A stretch of 59,942 bases of DNA from an uncultured Ruminococcus sp. (GTDB lineage: Bacteria; Bacillota; Clostridia; Oscillospirales; CAG-272): assembly GCA_900551005.1 (NCBI GenBank), contig URUL01000002.1:1-59942 (forward strand). The letters run 5' to 3'. The translations under genes were made by a program, and so were the position numbers. A model generated the notes under the pieces. That model did not search any database, was not told where the DNA came from, and saw only the letters and a list, made by a program, of their open reading frames with translations. This document shows, piece after piece, positions 1,482 through 50,608 of this stretch. Position 1 is the stretch's first letter. Every line of letters begins with the position of its first letter.

Positions 1482-4400
1482 ATGTCAAAAACAGAAAAAA
1501 CTCTGACAGAGCTTTTTGATAAATATATCCCGATGGCTGAAAACAGGAAAATACTCGATAGCGGCAAGGTACTCCGCATGCGCATTGATAAGGAAAAGCG
1601 CATGATGGAGGTAGATGCCGCTTTCAGTGCTTTGGTAAGCAAGGCGGAGCTCTATAGGCTGGAGCGGGCTCTCTGCGAGACATACAGGCTTGCTTATCTG
1701 AAAATATGCCCGAAATATGATGCATCGCTTTTTTCGCCGAAGTATTTTCCCGAGATCATTACAGAAGCAAGGCATACCAATATCATCTCTCATGGCTTTC
1801 TTCAAAAATATAATGCGGATTTTGACGAAAATACGATCAATATAGAAATCATGTTCGGAGACGGCGGGCTTTCCATGATGCGTGACGGCAATATCGGAGA
1901 GAAAATAGCCCGCATCATAGAAAACGAATTCGGACTGACATATTCCGTGAATTTCAGCACGGCAGGTAATATAGACATAGACTATGAGGAGCTGATAGCA
2001 AGTACCTTTGCCGCCGCTCATAGAAAGACGGAAGCGACTGCGGAAGAGGCTGAAGAGGTCTTTGAGATGCGCACCTCACTCTCGAGCGAGCCGCTGAGAA
2101 ACGATACAGATGAGCACGGCGTTCTCCATATAGGAAATATCATGCTTGACATATCCGCACCGGAGCCTGTTTACGGAGAGGCTTTTGAGATAGTGCCGAC
2201 AGCCATGCGCGAAATAGAGGGAAATATGCCATCTGTGATCGCCGCGGGAAAGATGTTCGGTATGGAGTTTCGCGAACTGCGCGGAAAAGGCACAGCAATC
2301 TCATTTTTCCTGACAGACGATGACGCTTCTATCACCGTGAAGCTGATGCTTACCGATGATAAAGCCAAGCTTTTCGAGGGATTGAAGAGCGGATGTGCGC
2401 TTGCCGTCCGCGGCAGATATAAATACGACGAATTTGTGGAGGAGAACGTGCTTTCTCCCGTAGGCGTACAAAAAATCAAGCTCGTTTCCCGCACCGATGA
2501 TGCGCCCGAAAAGCGAGTGGAATTGCATCTGCACACAAATATGTCCATGATGGACGCTACGATAGACCCATACGGCATAGTTGAAATTGCCAAGAGCTGG
2601 GGACATAAGGCGATAGCCATAACAGACCATGGGAATGTCCAGGGCTATCAGGAAGCGATGCTTGCCGCCGAAAAGCTCGGCATGAAGGTCATCTACGGTA
2701 TGGAGGCATACTTTGTCGATGATACGGCAAAGGCAATCTACGGCGACGATGATATAAGCTTCGAGGACGAATTTGTCGTTTTCGATACGGAGACTACCGG
2801 TCTTTCTCCCGTATATAATAAGCTGACCGAGATAGGCGCCGTCCGTGTCAAGAACGGTGAGGTGCTCGAGGTTTTCAACACATTTGTCAATCCCGAGGTT
2901 CTAATACCCGAAAATATAACCGAGCTTACAGGTATTTCCGACGATATGGTTTTCGATGCGCCGAAAACGAAGGAGGCTGTGGAGAGCTTTCTCGCTTTCA
3001 TCGGCGACAGGACGCTTGTTGCGCATAATGCCACATTTGACATGGGCTTTATCCGAAAAGCGGCAGATGATTACGGGCTGAAGTTTGAAAACGCATATAT
3101 TGATACCGTTTCCATGTCGCGTTTTGTCAATCCCGATCTCAAGAAGCACAAGCTTGACACCATTGCGGAATATTACGGACTCGGCGATTTCAACCATCAC
3201 CGCGCAAGCGACGATGCCGAAATGTGCTCTGCCATTTTCTATCGGATGATAGAAAAGCTGAAGGGAGAGGGCATCGATTCTCTCGCGCAGATGTCGCACT
3301 CCATGGTGGAAAATACCGATCCGAAAAAGCTGAAAACATACCATCAGATCATTCTCGTCAAGAATAAGGTCGGTCTGAAAAATCTCTACCGACTCATTTC
3401 GGAATCGTATCTGAAATATTACAAAAGGGTGCCGAGAATACCGAAAACTCAGCTTGAAAAATACCGCGAGGGATTGATCATCGGCTCGGCATGCGAAGCG
3501 GGACAGCTTTTCTCGGCTCTGGTAGAGGGCAAGCCGTGGGACGAGCTTGTATCGATAGCGCAGTTTTATGATTATCTCGAGATACAGCCACTTTCCAATA
3601 ACGGGTTTCTTATCCGCGAGGGAAGAGTGCCGAACGAGGAAGGATTGCGCGAGCTGAACCGCATGATAGTAAAGCTGGGTGAGGAGACGGGAAAGCCTGT
3701 CGTCGCAACATGTGATGCGCATTTTCTTGAGAAGCATGATGAAATATACAGGAAGATACTTCTTTCCGGTATGAAATATTCCGATGCCGATGCGGATATA
3801 GGGCTCTATATGCGAACGACGGATGAAATGCTCGCGGAATTTTCTTATCTCGGAGAAGAAAAGGCACGCGAGGTGGTCATAACAAATTCCAATAAAATAG
3901 CAGATGAGATAGAGGAGGGAATCCGTCCCTTCCCGAAAGGGACATTCACGCCGAAAATAGAAGGCGCGGAGGAGGACCTGCAAAACCGCTGTTATACGCG
4001 CGCAAAATCGCTCTATGGCGATCCGCTTCCCGACATTGTACGCGAGAGACTGGAAAAGGAGCTTGGCTCCATCATCAAAAACGGCTTTGCGGTGCTCTAT
4101 ATGATCGCCCAGAAGCTTGTAAGCTACTCAGAGAGCCAAGGCTATCTCGTAGGCTCGAGAGGCTCCGTGGGCTCGTCGTTTGTCGCTTCCATGGGCGGCA
4201 TTTCCGAGGTGAATCCTCTGCCGCCGCACTATTATCGCCCGAATTGTCAGTATTCCGAATTTTTTACCGACGGCTCTGTCGGCTCGGGATTCGATCTGCC
4301 CGATAAGAAATGCCCGAAATGCGGCGCTTCGCTGAAGGGTGACGGTCATAATATTCCCTTCGAAACGTTTCTCGGATTTCACGGCGAAAAGTCGCCCGAT

Positions 4401-5816
4401 ATAGACCTTAACTTCTCGGGAGAAGTTCAGGGCAAGGTACATAAATATACCGAGGAGCTTTTCGGTGCGGAAAACGTCTTTCGAGCCGGCACGATCGGTG
4501 CTGTTGCGAGCAAGACGGCATATGGCTATGTACGCAAATATCTCGATGAGCACAAGATAAACACGACCAAAGCAGAGATAGAGCGTCTCGTTTCGCATTG
4601 TGTAGGCGTCAAACGCACCACAGGACAGCATCCGGGCGGCATCGTCGTTGTTCCGAAAGAGAACGACATATATGATTTCACGCCGGTACAGCATCCTGCC
4701 GACGACCCGAATTCCAATATAGTGACGACGCACTTTACCTTTGAATATCTTCACGATACGCTGCTCAAGCTCGACGAGCTCGGACACGATATTCCGACGA
4801 AATACAAGATGATAGAGCGCTTTACCGGTACGAGCGTCATGGATGTTCCCATGAATGATCCCGAGGTCTACAAGCTCTTTACTTGCACCGAGCCGCTCGG
4901 TGCAAGCGCCGCGGAGATACGTTCTCCCATAGGCACGCTCGGCATACCCGAGATGGGAACAGGCTTTGTTCAGGGAATGCTCATGGATACAAAGCCGCAG
5001 ACCTTTGCCGACCTGCTTCAGGTTTCCGGACTTTCGCATGGAACAGACGTATGGCTCGGAAATGCGCAGGTGCTTTGTAAAAAAAATATCTGCACCATTT
5101 CATCGGTTATCGGTACGCGAGACAGTATCATGATATCGCTTATCGGTTACGGAATGGACAGCGGCGATGCTTTCAATATCATGGAAAAGGTACGAAAAGG
5201 CAAAGGCCTCTCTCCTGAGATGGAAGCGAAGATGCGCGATTGCCATGTTCCGGACTGGTACATAGACTCCTGCAAGAAAATAAAATATCTCTTTCCGAAG
5301 GCGCATGCCGCGGCTTATGTAATGAGTGCGATACGTCTCGGCTGGTATAAGGTTCATATGCCGCTGGAGTTTTACTGCGCATTTTTCAGCGCTGCGCCCG
5401 GAGGTTTTGATGCTTCTATTGCCATGAAGGGGAAGGATGCCATCGTTCGCTGCCTTGAGGAAATTGAGGCAAAAGGCAATGACACCTCACAGAAGGACGA
5501 TGCGCTCTATAACTCCATGCAGCTTGCAAACGAATTTCTGGCGCGAGGCTTCAAATTTCTGCCTGTCGATCTATATAAATCGGATGCGCGTCTCTTTCTG
5601 CCCGAAAACGGTAAAATGAGACTTCCTTTCGGAGCATTGCCGGGTTTGGGAGAAGCGGCGGCGCAGAGCTTGCAGGCGGCGAAAGACGAGGGAGAGTATC
5701 TTTCCGTCGAGGATCTGCAGCAGCGTTCCTGCGTATCAAAAGCCGTACTTGAGATTTTGGATATGAATGGGGTTCTCGACGGACTTTCCGAGACAAACCA
5801 AATGCGGCTTTTTTAA
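1482..5816 (+). CDS. polC: DNA polymerase III alpha subunit, Gram-positive PolC type
   Basis: Uninterrupted 1444-aa ORF. PHP motif (ELHLHTNMSMMDA), embedded DEDDh proofreading exonuclease (FVVFDTETTGLS, HNATFDMGF, HRASDDA), CPKCG zinc module and pol III alpha core. Length matches PolC. Confidence 0.97.
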   Translation: MSKTEKTLTELFDKYIPMAENRKILDSGKVLRMRIDKEKRMMEVDAAFSALVSKAELYRLERALCETYRLAYLKICPKYDASLFSPKYFPEIITEARHTNIISHGFLQKYNADFDENTINIEIMFGDGGLSMMRDGNIGEKIARIIENEFGLTYSVNFSTAGNIDIDYEELIASTFAAAHRKTEATAEEAEEVFEMRTSLSSEPLRNDTDEHGVLHIGNIMLDISAPEPVYGEAFEIVPTAMREIEGNMPSVIAAGKMFGMEFRELRGKGTAISFFLTDDDASITVKLMLTDDKAKLFEGLKSGCALAVRGRYKYDEFVEENVLSPVGVQKIKLVSRTDDAPEKRVELHLHTNMSMMDATIDPYGIVEIAKSWGHKAIAITDHGNVQGYQEAMLAAEKLGMKVIYGMEAYFVDDTAKAIYGDDDISFEDEFVVFDTETTGLSPVYNKLTEIGAVRVKNGEVLEVFNTFVNPEVLIPENITELTGISDDMVFDAPKTKEAVESFLAFIGDRTLVAHNATFDMGFIRKAADDYGLKFENAYIDTVSMSRFVNPDLKKHKLDTIAEYYGLGDFNHHRASDDAEMCSAIFYRMIEKLKGEGIDSLAQMSHSMVENTDPKKLKTYHQIILVKNKVGLKNLYRLISESYLKYYKRVPRIPKTQLEKYREGLIIGSACEAGQLFSALVEGKPWDELVSIAQFYDYLEIQPLSNNGFLIREGRVPNEEGLRELNRMIVKLGEETGKPVVATCDAHFLEKHDEIYRKILLSGMKYSDADADIGLYMRTTDEMLAEFSYLGEEKAREVVITNSNKIADEIEEGIRPFPKGTFTPKIEGAEEDLQNRCYTRAKSLYGDPLPDIVRERLEKELGSIIKNGFAVLYMIAQKLVSYSESQGYLVGSRGSVGSSFVASMGGISEVNPLPPHYYRPNCQYSEFFTDGSVGSGFDLPDKKCPKCGASLKGDGHNIPFETFLGFHGEKSPDIDLNFSGEVQGKVHKYTEELFGAENVFRAGTIGAVASKTAYGYVRKYLDEHKINTTKAEIERLVSHCVGVKRTTGQHPGGIVVVPKENDIYDFTPVQHPADDPNSNIVTTHFTFEYLHDTLLKLDELGHDIPTKYKMIERFTGTSVMDVPMNDPEVYKLFTCTEPLGASAAEIRSPIGTLGIPEMGTGFVQGMLMDTKPQTFADLLQVSGLSHGTDVWLGNAQVLCKKNICTISSVIGTRDSIMISLIGYGMDSGDAFNIMEKVRKGKGLSPEMEAKMRDCHVPDWYIDSCKKIKYLFPKAHAAAYVMSAIRLGWYKVHMPLEFYCAFFSAAPGGFDASIAMKGKDAIVRCLEEIEAKGNDTSQKDDALYNSMQLANEFLARGFKFLPVDLYKSDARLFLPENGKMRLPFGALPGLGEAAAQSLQAAKDEGEYLSVEDLQQRSCVSKAVLEILDMNGVLDGLSETNQMRLF

Positions 5817-44160: not shown

Positions 44161-45516
44161 TTACTCCTCAAAGATTCTGATGCTCTTTATAAGAGGGACA
44201 TCGCGTGAGCCTGTTATATAAATGCGGAGGCTGTCCATCTCCTTATTCACAGGGCATATCTTCTTGTGTCCTATCGTGGTATCGTCAAAGAAATGGCGAA
44301 AAACATTCTTTATGTTTTTCGTGGCAAGCGAGAAGCTCGAAACGCGCTGACCGTGTGCAATCTCTTCGCATAGCTCGATATAAGCGATCTTCTTTTTGCC
44401 GTCAAATATTATTTCATAGAACTTCTGTGTTTCGGATATCCATACTTCCTTCATATTGGATCTTTTACAGAGTTCTTTCTCATCTGAGAATGCGGTTTTT
44501 ATCCAATCGCCGAATTCCTGCAAACGCGCAACATCTTTTTCATCAAATTTTCCGTTCGGCATCGGAGGAATATTCAGATTCAGGCAGGTATTGTTTCCGA
44601 CGGAATTCAGATAGACCTTTTTGAGGTGTTCGAGCGAATGAGCACTCTCGTCAGGATGATAGAACCAGCCGGGACGTATAGAAGTATCTACCTCTGCGGG
44701 AGCAAATACCGGCTTACGCGAATAAATCATGGATTCGAAATCGCCTATTGTATTATATGTATTGAAAATATACTGCAATGTCCCGGGAACAGGAGACGCC
44801 GTCTGCGGTGCCGGCTGAAGTCTGTGACAAAGCTCATACGGAACTACAGCCCATTCCGCATGTCGGCGTGAACCGCTTTCGTTTCCTATCCAGCGTACAT
44901 CGGGACTGTGATCGTTATATATGACGGCATTCGGCTGATATTTGCGGATAAGCTCAAAATATCCGTCGAAATCGTATTCCTGACGCTTGCCGGTTGCCGT
45001 TTCGCCGTTTGCTTCGTCAAACCATACCTCAAAAACTTCTCCGTAACCGGTAAGAAGCTCCATAAGCTGTGCTTTGAAGAAATCGTTGTATTTATCTGTT
45101 CCGTAGTATTCGGAATTTCTGTCCCACGGTGAAAGATAGAAGCCGAACTTGATTCCCGCCTTGCGGCAAGCGTCCGAAAGCTCGCGGACAACATCGCCCC
45201 TACCGTTTTTATAAGGGGAATTTTTTATGGAGTGCTCGGTGGTCTTTGTCTGCCATAGGCAAAAACCGTCTTGATGCTTGGCAGTTATGATGGCACCCTT
45301 GAATCCTGCAGCCTTTATAGCGCGCACCCAGCCTTCACAGTCAAGCTCGACGGGATCGAATATGGCGGGGTCTTCCGTACCGTCGCCCCATTCTTTTCCT
45401 GTGTATGTATTCGGGCTGAAATGAATGAATGCGTACATCTCCATATCAAACCATCGGAGTTGATTTTCCGTAGGACGGACATTCCCCAAAACTTTCTGAT
45501 ATTCTTGTATTTCCAT
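44161..45516 (-). CDS. alpha-L-fucosidase (glycoside hydrolase family 29)
   Basis: 451 aa. GH29 N-terminal pattern (YAFIHFSPNTYTGKEWGDG, AKHQDGFCLWQT, FGFYLSPWD). GGAGGAATAA RBS. No signal peptide. Confidence 0.9.
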   Translation of the reverse strand: MEIQEYQKVLGNVRPTENQLRWFDMEMYAFIHFSPNTYTGKEWGDGTEDPAIFDPVELDCEGWVRAIKAAGFKGAIITAKHQDGFCLWQTKTTEHSIKNSPYKNGRGDVVRELSDACRKAGIKFGFYLSPWDRNSEYYGTDKYNDFFKAQLMELLTGYGEVFEVWFDEANGETATGKRQEYDFDGYFELIRKYQPNAVIYNDHSPDVRWIGNESGSRRHAEWAVVPYELCHRLQPAPQTASPVPGTLQYIFNTYNTIGDFESMIYSRKPVFAPAEVDTSIRPGWFYHPDESAHSLEHLKKVYLNSVGNNTCLNLNIPPMPNGKFDEKDVARLQEFGDWIKTAFSDEKELCKRSNMKEVWISETQKFYEIIFDGKKKIAYIELCEEIAHGQRVSSFSLATKNIKNVFRHFFDDTTIGHKKICPVNKEMDSLRIYITGSRDVPLIKSIRIFEE

Positions 45517-45555
45517 TTATTCCTCCATAGAGCGTTTTGCAAAATATGCGAAATA

Positions 45556-45585
45556 AATATATCATAAAAGCGACGCTCTTGTCAA
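45556..45585 (-). promoter_or_regulatory. sigma-A type promoter for the fucosidase-esterase operon (TTGACA, 18-nt spacer, TATATT on the minus strand)
   Basis: Reverse complement of 45580-45585 is TTGACA and of 45556-45561 is TATATT. The -35 is embedded in the palindrome CTCTTGtCAAGAG (45576-45588). Confidence 0.55.
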
Positions 45586-45673
45586 GAGTTATCGACTTTT
45601 TGAAGTATAAAACTGTTATTATTTTTCAGCTGAGTCTGAGCTGACAGCTCGGTTTTCGCGTATGCCTTGCGTT

Positions 45674-46558
45674 TCAGCGAAATTCTTTATCGTGCTTGCT
45701 GAAAAAGTCACGGTATACACGTACGTTTTCAAGCTCTGTCCAGCGCTTTTCACAAACGGGACGTGCATCGAGATCGTATATTTTGGCGCCGTTCATTGCA
45801 AGGATAAAGGGGCTGTGAGTGGCTACAATAAACTGACAGCCGTAAAAACGCGCCGAATCCTCGATAAACCTTGCAAGCTCCAGCTGATAAGCGGCAGAAA
45901 GACTGTTTTCCGGCTCGTCGAGAAGATAGAGCGCATTTTCCTTTATCTCATTCGTAAAATAGTGAAAAGCGCTTTCTCCGTTGGATTTTTCGGTTACGTT
46001 CTGCGACAGACGGCGCTTTGTGTACTTGTTTTTTGTCGTATGTCTCGCTTCGTTGTGGCGACGAAGCTCATCATACTGTGACAGATCGCGCATAAGAAAA
46101 GCCGGCTCATTCGGGTCGGTCAGCTTTTCGTATTCGTGAAAAATATCATCGCGCCGCTTATCCACGCCGTCATTGATCGCACGCATGTCGAGCAGGAAAT
46201 CAAAGACCTCATCGCTTGTGATGATGCGGCTGCCGCCGGGGAGAAAGCCGCGCGTAAGCCCGTATTTGCAAAAAGAGAGATATTCTTCGAAATACGGGGT
46301 GCGGTTGAAGGGAGCTTTTCGTATAAGACCGAGCTTTTCCGCCACTATATTCAGAAAAGTCGATTTTCCCGAGCCGTTTCCGCCGTAGAATATCGTAATC
46401 GGCGCAAATTCGGCATGAGAAAAATATTTCTCGGGAAAGATCTTAAAAGGATAGACGCAGTCGGCAAAGCAGGTCATCTCAACCTTATAGTTGAAGGAGA
46501 GAACGTATTGCGCCTCATCAAGCTCCGATGCGGGATCGAAAAAATCGAGATACATCAT
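45674..46558 (-). CDS. small ABC-type (AAA_21-like) ATPase without recognisable effector domain
   Basis: 294 aa. Walker A GGNGSGKST, signature-like SNGES, Walker B LYLLDEPENSLS, H-loop ATHSPF. ATGA start/stop overlap with the upstream repressor gene. Confidence 0.8.
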   Translation of the reverse strand: MMYLDFFDPASELDEAQYVLSFNYKVEMTCFADCVYPFKIFPEKYFSHAEFAPITIFYGGNGSGKSTFLNIVAEKLGLIRKAPFNRTPYFEEYLSFCKYGLTRGFLPGGSRIITSDEVFDFLLDMRAINDGVDKRRDDIFHEYEKLTDPNEPAFLMRDLSQYDELRRHNEARHTTKNKYTKRRLSQNVTEKSNGESAFHYFTNEIKENALYLLDEPENSLSAAYQLELARFIEDSARFYGCQFIVATHSPFILAMNGAKIYDLDARPVCEKRWTELENVRVYRDFFSKHDKEFR

Positions 46559-47307
46559 TTTTTCAGCTTTCCTATGACCTTGCCGAAGCAGGTAATGCTT
46601 ACTGCGGTATCGAGGGGAATGTCGCTGTAATCAGGATTGAGGGAAATGAGCCTGTTTCCGCCGTACTGCTTGAAGTAGCTTTCACCGTCTACGGAAAAAA
46701 TGCCGAGCTCGCCTATCTCTATATTCTTTCGGTCGGAAACGAGCAGAATGTCACCGTCGCTGTATTTCGGCGCCATACTGTTTCCACGCACTTTTATTGC
46801 AAAATCCGCGGCATCTGTTGTCGGATTGCTGTATACAGAGATATTTGTATAATCGCTGTCTTCCAGATAAGAGCCGGTGCCGGCAGAGGCAGCTGTGGAA
46901 TACAGACGGAGTGTGCGTATCTTGCGCGCGGCTTCCGTCACGTCCGCGTTTTTCTGCGGTTCGTATTCACGCTTTGCCGCGGCTTCTTTTGCCTTTTTCA
47001 AACGGCTGTATTCCTTATTTATAATATAGTCGGCAGTTTCCTTGCCGCTTGCATCGAGCTCGGAATATTTACGCATGATATCGGGAAGAGAAGAGATGTC
47101 ACCGTAAGAAGCCGTACCGAGAAGCTCATCCATGGAGCACGAAAAAGCATTCGAAAGTGCCGTGAGGGTAGAGAGCTTTGGATCGGTCGTGGCGCCGGAA
47201 AGCAATTTATTGAGAGTTCCCAGCGATATCCCGGAAAGCTCGGAGAGGCGCTCATTTGTGAGCTTCTTATCCTTTTTTATTTTCTTGATACATTCAAGCC
47301 ATTCCAT
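46555..47307 (-). CDS. XRE-HTH + S24 peptidase autocleavable repressor (HdiR / phage CI-like)
   Basis: 250 aa. N-terminal HTH (LTNERLSELSGISLGTLNKLLSG), candidate Ala-Gly cleavage site (AASAGTG), S24 catalytic Ser (VRGNSMAP) and Lys (SYFKQYGG). AGGAGG RBS. Confidence 0.88.
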   Translation of the reverse strand: MEWLECIKKIKKDKKLTNERLSELSGISLGTLNKLLSGATTDPKLSTLTALSNAFSCSMDELLGTASYGDISSLPDIMRKYSELDASGKETADYIINKEYSRLKKAKEAAAKREYEPQKNADVTEAARKIRTLRLYSTAASAGTGSYLEDSDYTNISVYSNPTTDAADFAIKVRGNSMAPKYSDGDILLVSDRKNIEIGELGIFSVDGESYFKQYGGNRLISLNPDYSDIPLDTAVSITCFGKVIGKLKK

Positions 47308-47378
47308 ATTAAAACCTCCTGTTTCTGTAAAAGAGAAATATTCCGCCGAGTTATTTCATATTATATTATTACGATTAT

Positions 47379-47407
47379 ATTTTATCACAAAGATTTGATT
47401 TTGTAAA
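47379..47407 (-). promoter_or_regulatory. promoter of the repressor-ATPase operon (TTTACA, 17-nt spacer, TGaTAAAAT on the minus strand)
   Basis: Reverse complement of 47402-47407 is TTTACA and of 47379-47384 is TAAAAT, with TG at -15/-14. About 70 nt upstream of the repressor ATG. Confidence 0.6.
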
Positions 47408-47471
47408 TAGGTTTTTGAAAATATTTTATATTTTACGGTAAAAATATTGATGAAATTTATAAAAACCTATT
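47406..47471. promoter_or_regulatory. candidate operator: perfect 11-bp inverted repeat AATAGGTTTTT / AAAAACCTATT bridging the two divergent promoters
   Basis: Arms at 47406-47416 and 47461-47471. The left arm overlaps the -35 of the minus-strand promoter by 2 bp and the right arm overlaps the -35 of the plus-strand promoter by 2 bp. Internal palindrome AAAATATTTT at 47418-47427. Confidence 0.5.
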
Positions 47472-47498
47472 GACAAAACGCAAATCGCGTAGTATAAT
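47470..47498 (+). promoter_or_regulatory. perfect-consensus sigma-A promoter (TTGACA, 17-nt spacer, TATAAT) for the membrane protein/radical SAM operon
   Basis: TTGACA at 47470-47475 and TATAAT at 47493-47498, spacer exactly 17 nt, about 60 nt upstream of ATG 47560. Confidence 0.7.
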
Positions 47499-47559
47499 CA
47501 AAATACAAATTATATTTGACGGTAATTTTTATACATAAATATAAATTCGGAGGGCGAAA

Positions 47560-47877
47560 ATGATCACAGAAAACGGATTTGAAATAATAGATGGTTGTAT
47601 AGTTTATGAATACGAAGCTGTATGTCCGAATTATGCCGAAAAGAAAAAGGCGTCGCACGGTCTTTTTGCCGCACTTTTTGCTTTGTTTTCCACTGTATTT
47701 GCTTTCATGGAAAATCTGCTCTGCATATTCATTGCGAGCATGATAATCTCATCGAAGAAAATACGCTTTGCTTTAAAGAAGAAAAAGCTTGTGCAGGTAT
47801 TCGCATGCATCGGCATATTTGCTTTTTGCTCCGCTTTTACGCTTATCGGTGTGGAGCTTGCCATACTTTTGGTGTAA
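47560..47877 (+). CDS. small membrane protein (hypothetical)
   Basis: 105 aa. GGAGGG RBS 5 nt before the ATG. Soluble about 30-aa N-terminus, then two long hydrophobic helices separated by a KKIRFALKKKK loop. No family recognised. Confidence 0.55.
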   Translation: MITENGFEIIDGCIVYEYEAVCPNYAEKKKASHGLFAALFALFSTVFAFMENLLCIFIASMIISSKKIRFALKKKKLVQVFACIGIFAFCSAFTLIGVELAILLV

Positions 47878-47880
47878 AAA

Positions 47881-48756
47881 ATGCACGAGGCAGAAGCGAA
47901 GTGTATATTGTCGTCCCATGGGCGCATGAATCCGTATCGCGGATGCTCGCATGGCTGCATTTACTGCGATTCGCGCAGTAAATGCTATGGGTTTGCTCAT
48001 GATTTTTCGGATGTGGAGGTAAAGGTCAATGCACCGGAGCTTCTCGAAAATGCACTTTTGCATAAACGGAAACGCTCGATGATCGGAACGGGCAGTATGT
48101 GTGACCCGTATCAGGATGCTGAGGAAAAATACAGAATAACGGAAAAATGTGCGCTTATCGCCGAAAAATACGGCTTCGGCTTTACCTTTATTACGAAAAG
48201 TTCGCGGTGTTTGCGCGATATCGATATTTTCAGCTGTATAAATGAGAAAACGAAATGTGTTGTGCAGATGACGCTTACCACATCGGATACGAATGTATGC
48301 CGTATACTCGAGCCGAATGTCTCGGACACATATGAAAGAGCCGAAGCTCTCGAGCGCTTTAAAAATGCGGGAATCCCCTCTGTCGTTTGGCTTTCTCCTT
48401 TTTTGCCGTATATTAACGACACCGAGGAAAATCTGCGCTCGCTTCTTGAGATCTGCGCGGCAGTAGGTGTGAGACATATCGTAAATTTTGGAATCGGGCT
48501 TACTCTTCGCGAAGGAAGCAGAGAGTATTTCTATCGCGAGCTGGACCGGCATTTTCCGGGGCTATCCGATAGATATAGGCATGATTTCGGCGATTCTTAT
48601 GTGTGCGCAAGCCAAAATAATGACAGGCTGATGCGTATATTTACGGATTTTTGCGACAAGTACGGCATGGGCTCCGATCCCGGACATGCGTTTGCTTATC
48701 TCGGTGAATTCGAGGATAAGCGCATGGGAAATCAGCTCGCTCTTGACATCTTTTGA
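47881..48756 (+). CDS. SPL-family (COG1533, SplB / DNA repair photolyase-like) radical SAM protein
   Basis: 291 aa. Signature NPYRGCSHGCIYCDSR (CxxxCxxC) characteristic of this subfamily. Starts 3 nt after the preceding stop. Confidence 0.8.
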   Translation: MHEAEAKCILSSHGRMNPYRGCSHGCIYCDSRSKCYGFAHDFSDVEVKVNAPELLENALLHKRKRSMIGTGSMCDPYQDAEEKYRITEKCALIAEKYGFGFTFITKSSRCLRDIDIFSCINEKTKCVVQMTLTTSDTNVCRILEPNVSDTYERAEALERFKNAGIPSVVWLSPFLPYINDTEENLRSLLEICAAVGVRHIVNFGIGLTLREGSREYFYRELDRHFPGLSDRYRHDFGDSYVCASQNNDRLMRIFTDFCDKYGMGSDPGHAFAYLGEFEDKRMGNQLALDIF

Positions 48757-48909: not shown

Positions 48910-49437
48910 TTATAATATGATTTTCCATTCCTCTGTCAGCTTTTCAAGTGATGCGGAAGCATTGGCAGGGCTGGTGGAGGGAAGCTTTACTGCCGCCATG
49001 CCTGTCTTGGGCAGGATGTATTTATCATAAAGGCGGGCGGCTGTTCCGCCGTTTACAAATATGCGCGATATCTTGCTTTTGGAGAGGATTTCGGAAATAT
49101 CGTTGGGCACGGCATTTTTGATGGAGCTGTCGGAAGAACCGCTTATTTCGCATGATGCGATGACATCCCACAGCGCGATTCCGTTTCTCAGTAACATAGA
49201 GCGCTTTTCCTCGGCGGTCTCGGGAACATTTTCCCCGAAAAGACCGGAAAGAACACGCCAGAATCGATTCTGCGGATGCGCATAAAAGAATGCCGCCTCA
49301 CGCGATTTCACGGAAGGAAAGCTACCGAGAATAAGGATGCGTGAATTTTCATCCCATATCGGCGCGATATTGTGCACTGCGTGCTCGCTTGCGGGGCAGA
49401 CTGCACCGTTTGCCATAAGAAGCGCGTACTTGACCAT
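48910..49437 (-). CDS. UDG-superfamily DNA glycosylase of the deoxyinosine/hypoxanthine (family 6-like) type
   Basis: 175 aa. ILILGSFPSVKSREAAFFYAHPQNRFWRVL matches the DNA-deoxyinosine glycosylase pattern; C-terminal LPSTSPAN. Confidence 0.75.
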   Translation of the reverse strand: MVKYALLMANGAVCPASEHAVHNIAPIWDENSRILILGSFPSVKSREAAFFYAHPQNRFWRVLSGLFGENVPETAEEKRSMLLRNGIALWDVIASCEISGSSDSSIKNAVPNDISEILSKSKISRIFVNGGTAARLYDKYILPKTGMAAVKLPSTSPANASASLEKLTEEWKIIL

Positions 49438-49455
49438 GCAGAATATATTTCCCGT

Positions 49456-49806
49456 TCACGCAAAACGCGAATTGTCGGAAAAATCATCGTCCGAGCTAAT
49501 CCACATCAGCCGAATTTCATTGCCGGAAACATTTTTTTCGTGAATAAGCGTGCCGCTCCAGAATTCGAGAAGCAATTCCTCCTCGCAATAAGTCAAATCC
49601 ATGAGATGCGAGATCTTTATGTCATCGCGTGAGATCGCGGTTTCCTCAAAAAGCTCGCGATATGCCGCTTCCTCGCTCATTTCGCCGGGCTCTATCTTGC
49701 CGCCTACGAAATTCAGCTTGCCTTGATGCGGCGCTTTTTTTCGCAGACACATGAGAATTTTGCTCCTGTCGGGCGAAAAGACAAGTATAAGATTACATTT
49801 TTTCAT
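49456..49806 (-). CDS. NUDIX hydrolase
   Basis: Nudix box GGKIEPGEMSEEAAYRELFEETA. Start set at ATG 49806 (MKKCNLILVF); the track start is a GTG at 49839 that overlaps the AraC gene. Confidence 0.85.
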   Translation of the reverse strand: MKKCNLILVFSPDRSKILMCLRKKAPHQGKLNFVGGKIEPGEMSEEAAYRELFEETAISRDDIKISHLMDLTYCEEELLLEFWSGTLIHEKNVSGNEIRLMWISSDDDFSDNSRFA

Positions 49807-49813
49807 TTCAAAT

Positions 49814-50608
49814 TCACTTCCCGCGTTTTCGGTATTCACCTGTCGTTATTCCCGCTGTCTTGCGAAACTGACGGCAAAAATAAGCGCAATCATAAAAGCC
49901 GAGCAGGCTTGATATATGTTCTATGGTATAGTCTGAAGTATCGAGAAGCAGCTTTGCCTTGCTTATTTTTGCTTTCATCAGATATTCGGAAAACGGAATC
50001 CCGACGACGGATGAAAATAGTTTGCCGAAATAATCGGCGCTGTAGCCGTATACTTTTGCCGTTTCCGAGAGCGAACCGATATTTTCGGGAGAAAAGTCCA
50101 TTTGTTCTGTCAGCTTCTTGATCATGGCGTCGTGCGGTGCTTCTATGATAGGGGAAGGCGCTTTGGGCGAGCCGCCGAAAAACTCTGTCAGCGCGCAGTG
50201 CAGAAATTCTGCCGCACTTTCGTTTTCACCTTTATTATAATAGAAAATAACGCGGCGAAGCAGGCGCGAATAAAACTCGGCATCGGGTATCGTTTTGCAG
50301 AGAGTTTTTTTCGGAAAGGCGGCTATATTCCGCGGTGAGAAGTGAACATTAAGCGCAAGCAGACGGTCATTTATATCGTGGGAAGCATTATAGCGTGTAT
50401 TCGGGCAGAGCAGGAAGCTCTTTCCGGCGGATATCTCCATAGGCTCTCCGCCACACACTATCATGCCTTTTCCGCGCAGAACCGTCCACAGGTCATAATC
50501 TGAAAATCCCGCCGTATTCCAGCTCCAATCCGCCGGGCAGTCCGATATACCGCAGGAATTGATTCTGATGTCAAGTTCATGTAAGGCTTCTTCCATCGTT
50601 TCCTCCAA
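49814..50608 (-). CDS. AraC-family transcriptional regulator (cupin sensor + HTH)
   Basis: 264 aa. N-terminal cupin-like domain, C-terminal double HTH (…IEHISSLLGFYDCAYFCRQFRKTAGITTGEYRK). Confidence 0.88.
   Translation of the reverse strand: MEETMEEALHELDIRINSCGISDCPADWSWNTAGFSDYDLWTVLRGKGMIVCGGEPMEISAGKSFLLCPNTRYNASHDINDRLLALNVHFSPRNIAAFPKKTLCKTIPDAEFYSRLLRRVIFYYNKGENESAAEFLHCALTEFFGGSPKAPSPIIEAPHDAMIKKLTEQMDFSPENIGSLSETAKVYGYSADYFGKLFSSVVGIPFSEYLMKAKISKAKLLLDTSDYTIEHISSLLGFYDCAYFCRQFRKTAGITTGEYRKRGK

Follow-up and report, generated by a model that had tools for sequence, protein, structure and literature searches.

A chromosomal XRE-S24 repressor with a bidirectional control region and a lineage-specific coupling to an ABC-type ATPase gene in an uncultured Ruminococcus sp.

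The stretch of DNA analysed here, referred to throughout as the window (59,942 nucleotides; contig URUL01000002.1, positions 1 to 59,942, assembly GCA_900551005.1, an uncultured Ruminococcus sp.), encodes a predicted autocleavable repressor, consisting of an XRE-type helix-turn-helix (HTH) and a peptidase S24 domain, followed directly by a single-domain ABC-type ATPase. An earlier reading of the sequence, the original prediction, took the two genes for a candidate damage- or phage-triggered module in their own right. We instead read the locus, at a probability somewhat above even (about 55%), as a chromosomal SOS-like, LexA-like local regulator of the phage-CI/HdiR type with a bidirectional control region, whose operon has captured a free-standing ABC ATPase gene. 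The conserved partner of the repressor family is a divergently encoded small open reading frame (ORF), not the ATPase. Capture of the ATPase amounts to a rewiring confined to particular lineages, and the two genes do not make up a conserved defence module. The pair is laid out as follows.

46555..47307, minus strand: predicted XRE-HTH and peptidase S24 autocleavable repressor, 250 aa (ORF; Pfam HTH_3 and Peptidase_S24; invariant residues in the alignment)
45674..46558, minus strand: single-domain ABC-type ATPase of the AAA_21/AAA_15 type, 294 aa (ORF; Pfam; alignment; AF2 model)
46555..46558, minus strand: ATGA stop/start overlap, the TGA of the repressor with the ATG of the ATPase (sequence)

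The coordinates of both ORFs and the ATGA overlap were confirmed in the sequence. From the overlap the repressor and ATPase are predicted to be co-transcribed, and translational coupling of the two is probable; a Shine-Dalgarno-like AGGAAAG lies 8 nt 5' of the ATPase ATG, within the 3' end of the repressor gene. The same 4-bp overlap is also called in other loci (L001-L003, L085-87 and L174, by our own labels) and in a separate clade, L073/L131, and the overlapping pair was recovered on other contigs by independent gene callers. The reach of the arrangement was gauged from both sides. In a repressor-side sample of 80 metagenome loci, the ATPase lies directly downstream in all 8 loci where the repressor is at least 74% identical to that of the window, in 0/28 at 50-64% identity, and in 1/35 at 34-46% (L131); gene calls around three repressor relatives placed an ATPase downstream only in the 74%-identical one. 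The ATPase-side sample consisted of 80 species-representative genomes, labelled mostly Clostridia, Eubacteriales, Oscillospiraceae and Lachnospiraceae, and including Clostridium drakei, Jeotgalibaca and Anaeromicropila. Here an XRE-S24 gene stands upstream of the ATPase in a single species locus (L073) and in none of the other 79. The idea of a conserved two-gene module did not survive these counts, and the lack of co-conservation in other genomes, which the original prediction had itself named in advance as one outcome that would tell against it, is largely what was found.

The second coupled clade is informative in this respect. The repressors of L073 and L131 share 68% identity between themselves and 41-42% with that of the window, and each is overlapped by its ATPase by 4 bp. 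Their ATPases are mutual best matches (51%), and are 45-51% identical to the window copy vs 47-54% to free-standing ones. Because they are no closer to the window's ATPase than free-standing copies are, the coupling arose at least 2 times independently in one repressor family, which argues against pure accident. On the accidental account the ATPase gene landed behind the repressor and borrows its promoter with no regulatory meaning, while serving an unrelated housekeeping role. Such neutral adjacency would sit well with ATPase neighbourhoods that are variable and unrelated in 79/80 species, with the loss of the operator at the repressor promoter described below, and with the lack of operator enrichment upstream of free-standing ATPases. 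We nevertheless consider it unlikely, given that the same tight layout occurs in two independent clades and that the locus gathers other DNA-damage genes, namely a Rv2578c-like radical SAM gene and a NUDIX-glycosylase gene. Repeated capture might alternatively reflect a functional partnership, with the ATPase acting as co-sensor, anti-repressor or co-protease of the repressor, held at a fixed ratio by translational coupling, and a signal other than RecA on single-stranded DNA (RecA-ssDNA) leading to cleavage or release. Retention of the 4-bp overlap in two independent clades is what such a partnership would predict, and loss of the autoregulatory operator just where the ATPase was gained would suit a constitutive sensor pair. 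However, the ATPase family greatly exceeds the repressor family in its spread, its genes almost never lie beside such a repressor, and most repressor-family members have no adjacent ATPase; a partnership of this kind is in our judgement unlikely.

The local-regulator reading begins with the repressor itself, which matches HTH_3 over residues 7-62 (E=4e-10) and Peptidase_S24 (PF00717) over residues 136-245 (E=1.6e-19, 70.2 bits vs a cut-off of 23.3). The elements for self-cleavage named in the original prediction are present and, across 30 aligned family members, invariant: Ala142-Gly143, Ser177 in GNSMAP and Lys213 in FKQY, with spacings from cleavage site to Ser to Lys of 35 and 36 residues. 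In E. coli LexA these positions are Ala84-Gly85, Ser119 and Lys156, spaced by 35 and 37. An S24 domain, an Ala-Gly site, a Ser/Lys dyad, LexA-like spacing and repeated dyad operators, the features by which an autocleaving S24 repressor is recognised, were thus all found, and the protein is predicted to be one, carrying all of the sequence determinants. It is not a canonical LexA: against TIGR00498 it scores 27.7 bits vs a cut-off of 110.95, through the S24 part only, and its N-terminus is HTH_3 with no LexA winged helix. No NCBIfam model was reached at its cut-off by either the repressor or the ATPase. Regulators of SOS responses that are S24 proteins other than LexA have precedent in HdiR, UmuDAb and the Bacteroidetes non-canonical LexA (PMC8565304).

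Relatives of the repressor at 50-90% identity, 237-250 aa in length, are common in Clostridia metagenomes, and the protein is a member of a Clostridia-wide chromosomal family. The chromosomal context differs among clades (groES/EL, clpX, gpsA, RF-1, Sua5), and the genes 3' of the repressor vary likewise, including RadC-like, pantothenate-kinase-like and glycosyltransferase genes, with no fixed partners. The best PHROG match of the repressor is phrog_4, a phage 'transcriptional repressor' (E=6e-33), and related XRE-S24 proteins are common in viral contigs, as would be expected if the locus were a prophage remnant, with the repressor a leftover immunity repressor and the ATPase a phage moron. 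But the viral-contig relatives are at most 39% identical, vs 50-90% for chromosomal relatives in conserved non-phage contexts; the ATPase is beside the repressor relative in 0/80 viral-contig loci; and no integrase, phage gene or umuC occurs within 10 kb either side of the pair, a stretch that encodes proteins such as RF-1, Sua5, CoaE, an M18 peptidase, a fucosidase and a protein with an SLT domain. A prophage remnant is very unlikely on this evidence. A CI-like prophage immunity region was rejected on the housekeeping neighbours and the 39% identity of the best viral repressor relative; the original prediction had already dismissed both such a region and an HdiR-umuC cassette, and on both counts it was borne out.

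Comparison with HdiR of Lactococcus/Streptococcus (COG2932, phage-CI type) is instructive, as it likewise combines an XRE-type HTH and S24 domain with an Ala-Gly site and Ser/Lys dyad. HdiR is chromosomal, regulates its own gene and governs a minimal local regulon in place of a global SOS network (PMC8565304), and the window repressor resembles it in being chromosomal with a minimal local regulon. Unlike the window locus, HdiR controls umuC-type mutagenesis cassettes; the window repressor also differs in its TTACCG-based operator, its putative targets (small ORF, radical SAM gene and ATPase) and its taxon, the Clostridia. No SIDE(A/V) motif of Y-family polymerases was found in the window, nor did a motif scan find canonical lexA, recA or uvrA, a scan that covered the window only.

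The region between the repressor and the small ORF contains the elements on which regulation would depend.

47379..47407, minus strand: predicted promoter of the repressor-ATPase transcript, TTTACA-17-TAAAAT with TG upstream (homologous position in all family loci; conserved TTTACA...GTGNTA(T/A)AAT)
47470..47498, plus strand: predicted promoter of the small-ORF operon, TTGACA-17-TATAAT, a perfect sigma-70-type promoter (12/12 consensus; TTGACA...GTATAAT kept in relatives)
47508..47527, minus strand: putative operator O1, core TTACCGTCAAATATAA at 47510-47525 (25.7 of 27.5 bits, the top position weight matrix (PWM) hit of the window; exact pattern match)
47424..47443, minus strand: putative operator O3, core TTACCGTAAAATATAA at 47426-47441 (25.0 bits, the second-best PWM hit; direct repeat D1)
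47399..47478, no strand: 24-nt inverted repeat I1, TTGTCAATAGGTTTTT / AAAAACCTATTTACAA (88% complementary; spans both divergent -35 regions; kept in both repressor clades)
47560..47877, plus strand: divergent small ORF, 105 aa, with two hydrophobic helices (ORF; GGAGG ribosome-binding site; N-terminal motif)
47881..48756, plus strand: radical SAM protein, akin to the Rv2578c and PA0069 families (separated from the small ORF by 3 bp; gene 2 of the divergent operon)

The half-site TTACC is strongly over-represented in these regions across the family, with 58 occurrences in 15 non-redundant intergenic regions against 6.1 +/- 2.4 expected. The operator consensus is TTACCG-N4-(C/A)(G/T)(G/A)TAA, that is with CGGTAA or ATATAA as the second half, reaching a perfect palindrome, TTACCGCATGCGGTAA, in some loci, and each intergenic region holds 2-6 operators. 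Using a PWM built from other loci with the window excluded, the two best hits in 60 kb both fell in the repressor/small-ORF intergenic region, and the next (18.4 bits) lay inside a fucosidase gene; the PWM gave no further strong regulon sites in the 60-kb window, and the exact operator pattern occurs nowhere else in it. Palindromes with 2 mismatches number 10 in the window vs 1.6 expected, mostly inside genes. O1 starts some 10 nt past the -10 of the small-ORF promoter and reaches to about 29 nt past it, and O3 falls between the two divergent -35 elements, 84 bp from O1; both sites are shared by L087, L095 and L096. I1 forms the conserved core of this bidirectional region. The sequence gives good support for the small-ORF operon being repressed by the repressor. 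An Rfam scan of 45300-48000 identified no RNA family.

The sister repressor clade (L073, L125-L166), with proteins of 262-287 aa that are 34-46% identical to the window repressor, has the same bidirectional promoter skeleton with CGGAA-type half-sites. At the position of the small ORF it carries a different small divergent protein, with 2-3 transmembrane helices (MNxYY...GVIGGxExG), and RadC-like genes are downstream of the repressor in 8 of its loci.

The small ORF is divergent from the repressor in essentially all loci at 50% identity or above that have room upstream, and each of the three gene-called repressor relatives has a divergent upstream small gene (61-106 aa, no Pfam match). The family, 60-115 aa long and including L085-L118, is conserved at its N-terminus as Y(D/E)xxIIEGCxVYSYxVE.P, after which come a basic linker and up to two hydrophobic helices; the window copy had no match in Pfam, NCBIfam or PHROG. 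Analogy makes its product a candidate damage-induced membrane or division effector. In B. subtilis (lexA/yneA) and S. aureus (lexA/sosA), lexA is divergent from an SOS division inhibitor. The lexA gene of M. tuberculosis is similarly divergent from the division suppressor Rv2719c (PMC3381160). What the window shares with these loci is an S24 repressor back-to-back with the gene of a small, usually membrane-associated protein and several operators in between; it differs in that the DNA-binding domain of the repressor is XRE, not a LexA winged helix, and in the dissimilarity of its small protein to YneA, SosA and ChiZ.

The radical SAM gene forms part of this operon in no species other than the window's own (called in L174), and is absent in the 88% clade. 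Its best family is Rv2578c, at 141.7 bits vs an NCBIfam cut-off of 430, so that it is not a member by the curated threshold, and PA0069 is also below cut-off. In M. tuberculosis Rv2578c is LexA-bound and RecA-dependent (PMC3381160). In an unrelated metagenome-assembled genome of Clostridia, a homologue 56% identical to the window's radical SAM protein (L079, 3630-4499) is encoded immediately after a free-standing ATPase. Adjoining the radical SAM gene is a fusion of a MutT-like NUDIX domain with a DNA-deoxyinosine (hypoxanthine) glycosylase (window 48910-49839, minus strand; L174 7469-8398). The fusion is an intact 309-aa ORF in L174 and the 88% clade, but in the window its codon 128, which specifies Gly in L174, reads TGA and splits the frame into two ORFs, owing either to a nonsense mutation of this strain or to an error in sequencing.

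Profile classification of the ATPase returned AAA_21 (E=1.4e-13) plus AAA_15, in line with the AAA_21-like assignment made at the outset. The ABC motifs named in the original prediction are all present and are invariant across 30 relatives (Walker A, G59-T67; SNGES, 192-196; Walker B/D-loop LLDEPENSLS, 212-221; H-loop H248), as is a candidate A-loop aromatic, Tyr36 in YPF. The AF2 model (pLDDT 84) predicts an ABC head with a helical hairpin inserted at ~115-183. The tip of this hairpin is strongly basic (ELRRHNEARHTTKNKYTKRRL), with K176 and R183 conserved, and would suit nucleic-acid binding. Foldseek searches with the model placed SMC heads on top, followed by OLD, GajA, PtuA and ABC transporter nucleotide-binding domains, at query TM-scores of 0.29-0.42, values that suggest class-level likeness only, to generic ABC heads. 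None of the RecF, RecN or SMC family models was passed at cut-off. A transporter role is not indicated, as ABC_tran scores 22.1 bits vs a cut-off of 25, the signature is SNGES not LSGGQ, and no conserved permease is adjacent in the 80 species loci.

A protein search returned at least 8000 matches, and among the matches listed the closest non-identical relatives are 58-65% identical over the full length, mostly 285-305 aa, and named only 'AAA family ATPase'. In an exhaustive profile search, clusters at 50% identity numbered 389 for E<=1e-30 and 1682 for E<=1e-10, and at 90% identity the clusters number more than 8000. Relatives are mostly about 280-310 aa, and no extra Pfam domain was found in 10 longer ones that were checked. 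The family is large, single-domain, mostly free-standing, mostly from Clostridia and uncharacterised in function; the literature on COG3910 and on ABC-ATPase classification yielded nothing usable for it. Identity to the window copy is 55-63% in loci labelled Clostridia, Eubacteriales or Oscillospiraceae vs 50-54% in those labelled Lachnospiraceae, a gradient that we read as mainly vertical descent.

It was from this class of ATPase that a role in defence had been proposed, and the idea would have the S24 repressor sense infection or damage and release the ATPase as effector or sensor of an anti-phage or abortive-infection module. Defence systems are sometimes under damage-responsive repressors, CapH/CapP being an example, so the proposed logic has precedent. 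The best PADLOC and PDB sequence matches of the ATPase are PtuA, AriA, AbiLi and GajA, its fold resembles the OLD, GajA and PtuA heads, and with Septu PtuA, PARIS AriA, AbiLi, Gabija GajA and the OLD N-terminal domain it shares the ABC fold, Walker A, SxGxx, DEPE Walker B and H-loop, as well as a helical insert at the position of SMC-type coiled coils. The matches to PtuA, AriA and GajA are, however, limited to ~187-265 (Walker B/H-loop) and/or the P-loop, and the fullest, to AbiLi over residues 20-275, is weak at only 39.7 bits; from the PDB, sequence comparison brought up AriA and PtuA at the level of motifs only, and the ATPase is far below the NCBIfam cut-offs for PtuA and MAD3. It is roughly half the size of the defence ATPases, with TM-scores of 0.42 or lower. 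No nuclease or other effector is adjacent or fused to it, and in the case of a nuclease this holds in the window, in the 80 species loci and in the longer relatives, as the original prediction had observed for the window itself. The family is nearly absent from viruses, with 4/50,697 phage records and only 5 loci among 2.9 million viral contigs; it occurs in 51 plasmid records, mostly chromids or distant relatives, and the phage and plasmid members are all named 'AAA family ATPase'. Free-standing copies are flanked by metabolic or housekeeping genes, not defence islands, and inheritance looks vertical. These findings remove most of the ground from the defence framing, which we regard as improbable.

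Neighbourhood statistics for the 80 species loci gave the ATPase no defence-island context, and when all flanking ORFs were clustered against one another no conserved neighbour emerged. No genuine cluster was larger than those of ABC or MATE transporters, in 5 loci; one 'cluster' proved to be an artefact of antisense ORFs. Within 80 bp of free-standing ATPases, the genes on the same strand include those for RecX (L011), an MGMT-type DNA-binding protein (L043), OGG (L063) and MPG (L078), and in L079 a radical SAM gene of the same family as the window's adjoins the ATPase. Families of these kinds occur 9 times in ~800 kb of ATPase flanks, 7 of them immediately adjacent. We take these neighbours as a weak hint of a DNA-damage role, a lead and not a result. 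There is also some likeness to repair ATPases of the SMC-head/RecF type: SMC heads top the Foldseek list and the gene is sometimes in operons with RecX, ExoIII, OGG or MPG, whereas the insert is only ~70 residues and there is no coiled coil or RecF domain II. In L018 (5258-7454) an ExoIII-type nuclease, the ATPase and a YgjP/SprT/WLM-like metallopeptidase follow in this order with 4-bp overlaps throughout, a trio that is suggestive of DNA repair, possibly of DNA-protein crosslinks. One clade (L009, L021, L007, L028, L264) has a recurrent block of the ATPase, a TM1586-type nitroreductase, a low-molecular-weight phosphatase (LMWPc) and a NUDIX hydrolase, and in L008 and L010 a Bcp peroxiredoxin is directly downstream of the ATPase; the theme here is oxidative or nitrosative stress.

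Taking the local-regulator reading together, we propose that repressor dimers on O1 and O3 would shut off the small-ORF operon. A damage signal, most likely RecA-ssDNA and possibly with help from Clp as for HdiR, would trigger self-cleavage at Ala142-Gly143, and cleavage would free expression of the small protein and the Rv2578c-like enzyme. As YneA, SosA and Rv2719c suggest by analogy, the small protein may then act at the membrane to impose a checkpoint or inhibit division. The E. coli lexA transcript carries dinF, with SOS boxes at its promoter. In a similar manner the ATPase would be an output, a gene of other function riding on the repressor's own transcript and not required by the repressor. 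Unlike lexA-dinF, where the SOS boxes are kept, the promoter-overlapping operator is missing in the ATPase-carrying lineage, and because it is gone, ATPase expression in the window lineage is probably largely constitutive or only weakly autoregulated. The ATPase would most likely act on DNA in damage handling, dimerising in an ATP-dependent manner like SMC heads and RecF and using its basic helical hairpin, a step we put forward tentatively.

Several observations weigh against this scheme and are the reason for our caution. Repressor-only lineages typically have 4 sites, with O1 just past the small-ORF -10, O2 in the spacer of the small-ORF promoter, O3 central, and O4 at the promoter of the repressor itself, either within its spacer or just past it. 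The ATPase-carrying lineage (the window, L087, L095 and L096) has only O1 and O3, bracketing the small-ORF promoter, O2 and O4 having decayed. Since O4 at the repressor promoter is lost, the sequence does not lend the same support to classical autoregulation of the transcript that repressor and ATPase share, and it is doubtful that damage would induce the ATPase. The L073/L131 clade keeps its other half-site (CGGAA) in the repressor promoter. RecA-driven cleavage is itself uncertain, because some LexA-like XRE-S24 proteins are not RecA-driven, as reported for IrvR of S. mutans (PMC7101444). The small ORF has no detectable similarity to any known division inhibitor. Upstream of free-standing ATPases TTACCG/CGGTAA is not enriched (0.55 per kb vs a background of 0.60 per kb), and the Firmicutes LexA box (GAAC-N4-GTTC) was found there in only 1/80 loci, L082, where a perfect core, GAACTTGTGTTC, lies ~118 bp upstream of the ATPase. 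Repair genes make up ~6 of about 50 real adjacent genes, a raw count with classes assigned by eye, and were found in 0/3 further contexts; the repair signal was noticed post hoc. The SOS-derepressible ATPase of the original prediction fares unevenly: it is favoured by a coupling that arose at least twice and by the Rv2578c-like gene in the divergent operon, and is weakened by the loss of the repressor-promoter operator in the window lineage.

A bolder extension, to which we give a low probability, is that the ~290-aa ATPase is an unrecognised DNA-damage or base-excision ABC ATPase of Firmicutes, a minimal SMC-head/RecF-like sensor brought repeatedly into operons with repair genes and at least twice behind an S24 repressor, and that the repressor and small protein form an undescribed damage checkpoint in gut Clostridia. 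Elsewhere in the window, a 1444-aa ORF at 1482-5816 (plus strand) may from its size encode a DNA polymerase III of the PolC type, an enzyme in keeping with a Firmicutes chromosome; the assignment is based on size only.

The locus serves as a caution that not every AAA_21 ATPase is a defence gene. Of greater value as leads are the conserved system of repressor, small ORF and operators and the DNA-damage role that a very large orphan ATPase family may have. Many uncultured gut Clostridia share the repressor/small-ORF module, which resembles damage checkpoints of the lexA/yneA type and may be a counterpart not yet described; its operator motif, TTACCG-N4-CGGTAA/ATATAA, is defined well enough for direct testing. 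The ATPase family is among the larger uncharacterised single-domain ABC families of gut Firmicutes, and its recurrent capture by the repressor, together with its scattered repair neighbours, would provide a first testable handle on its function.

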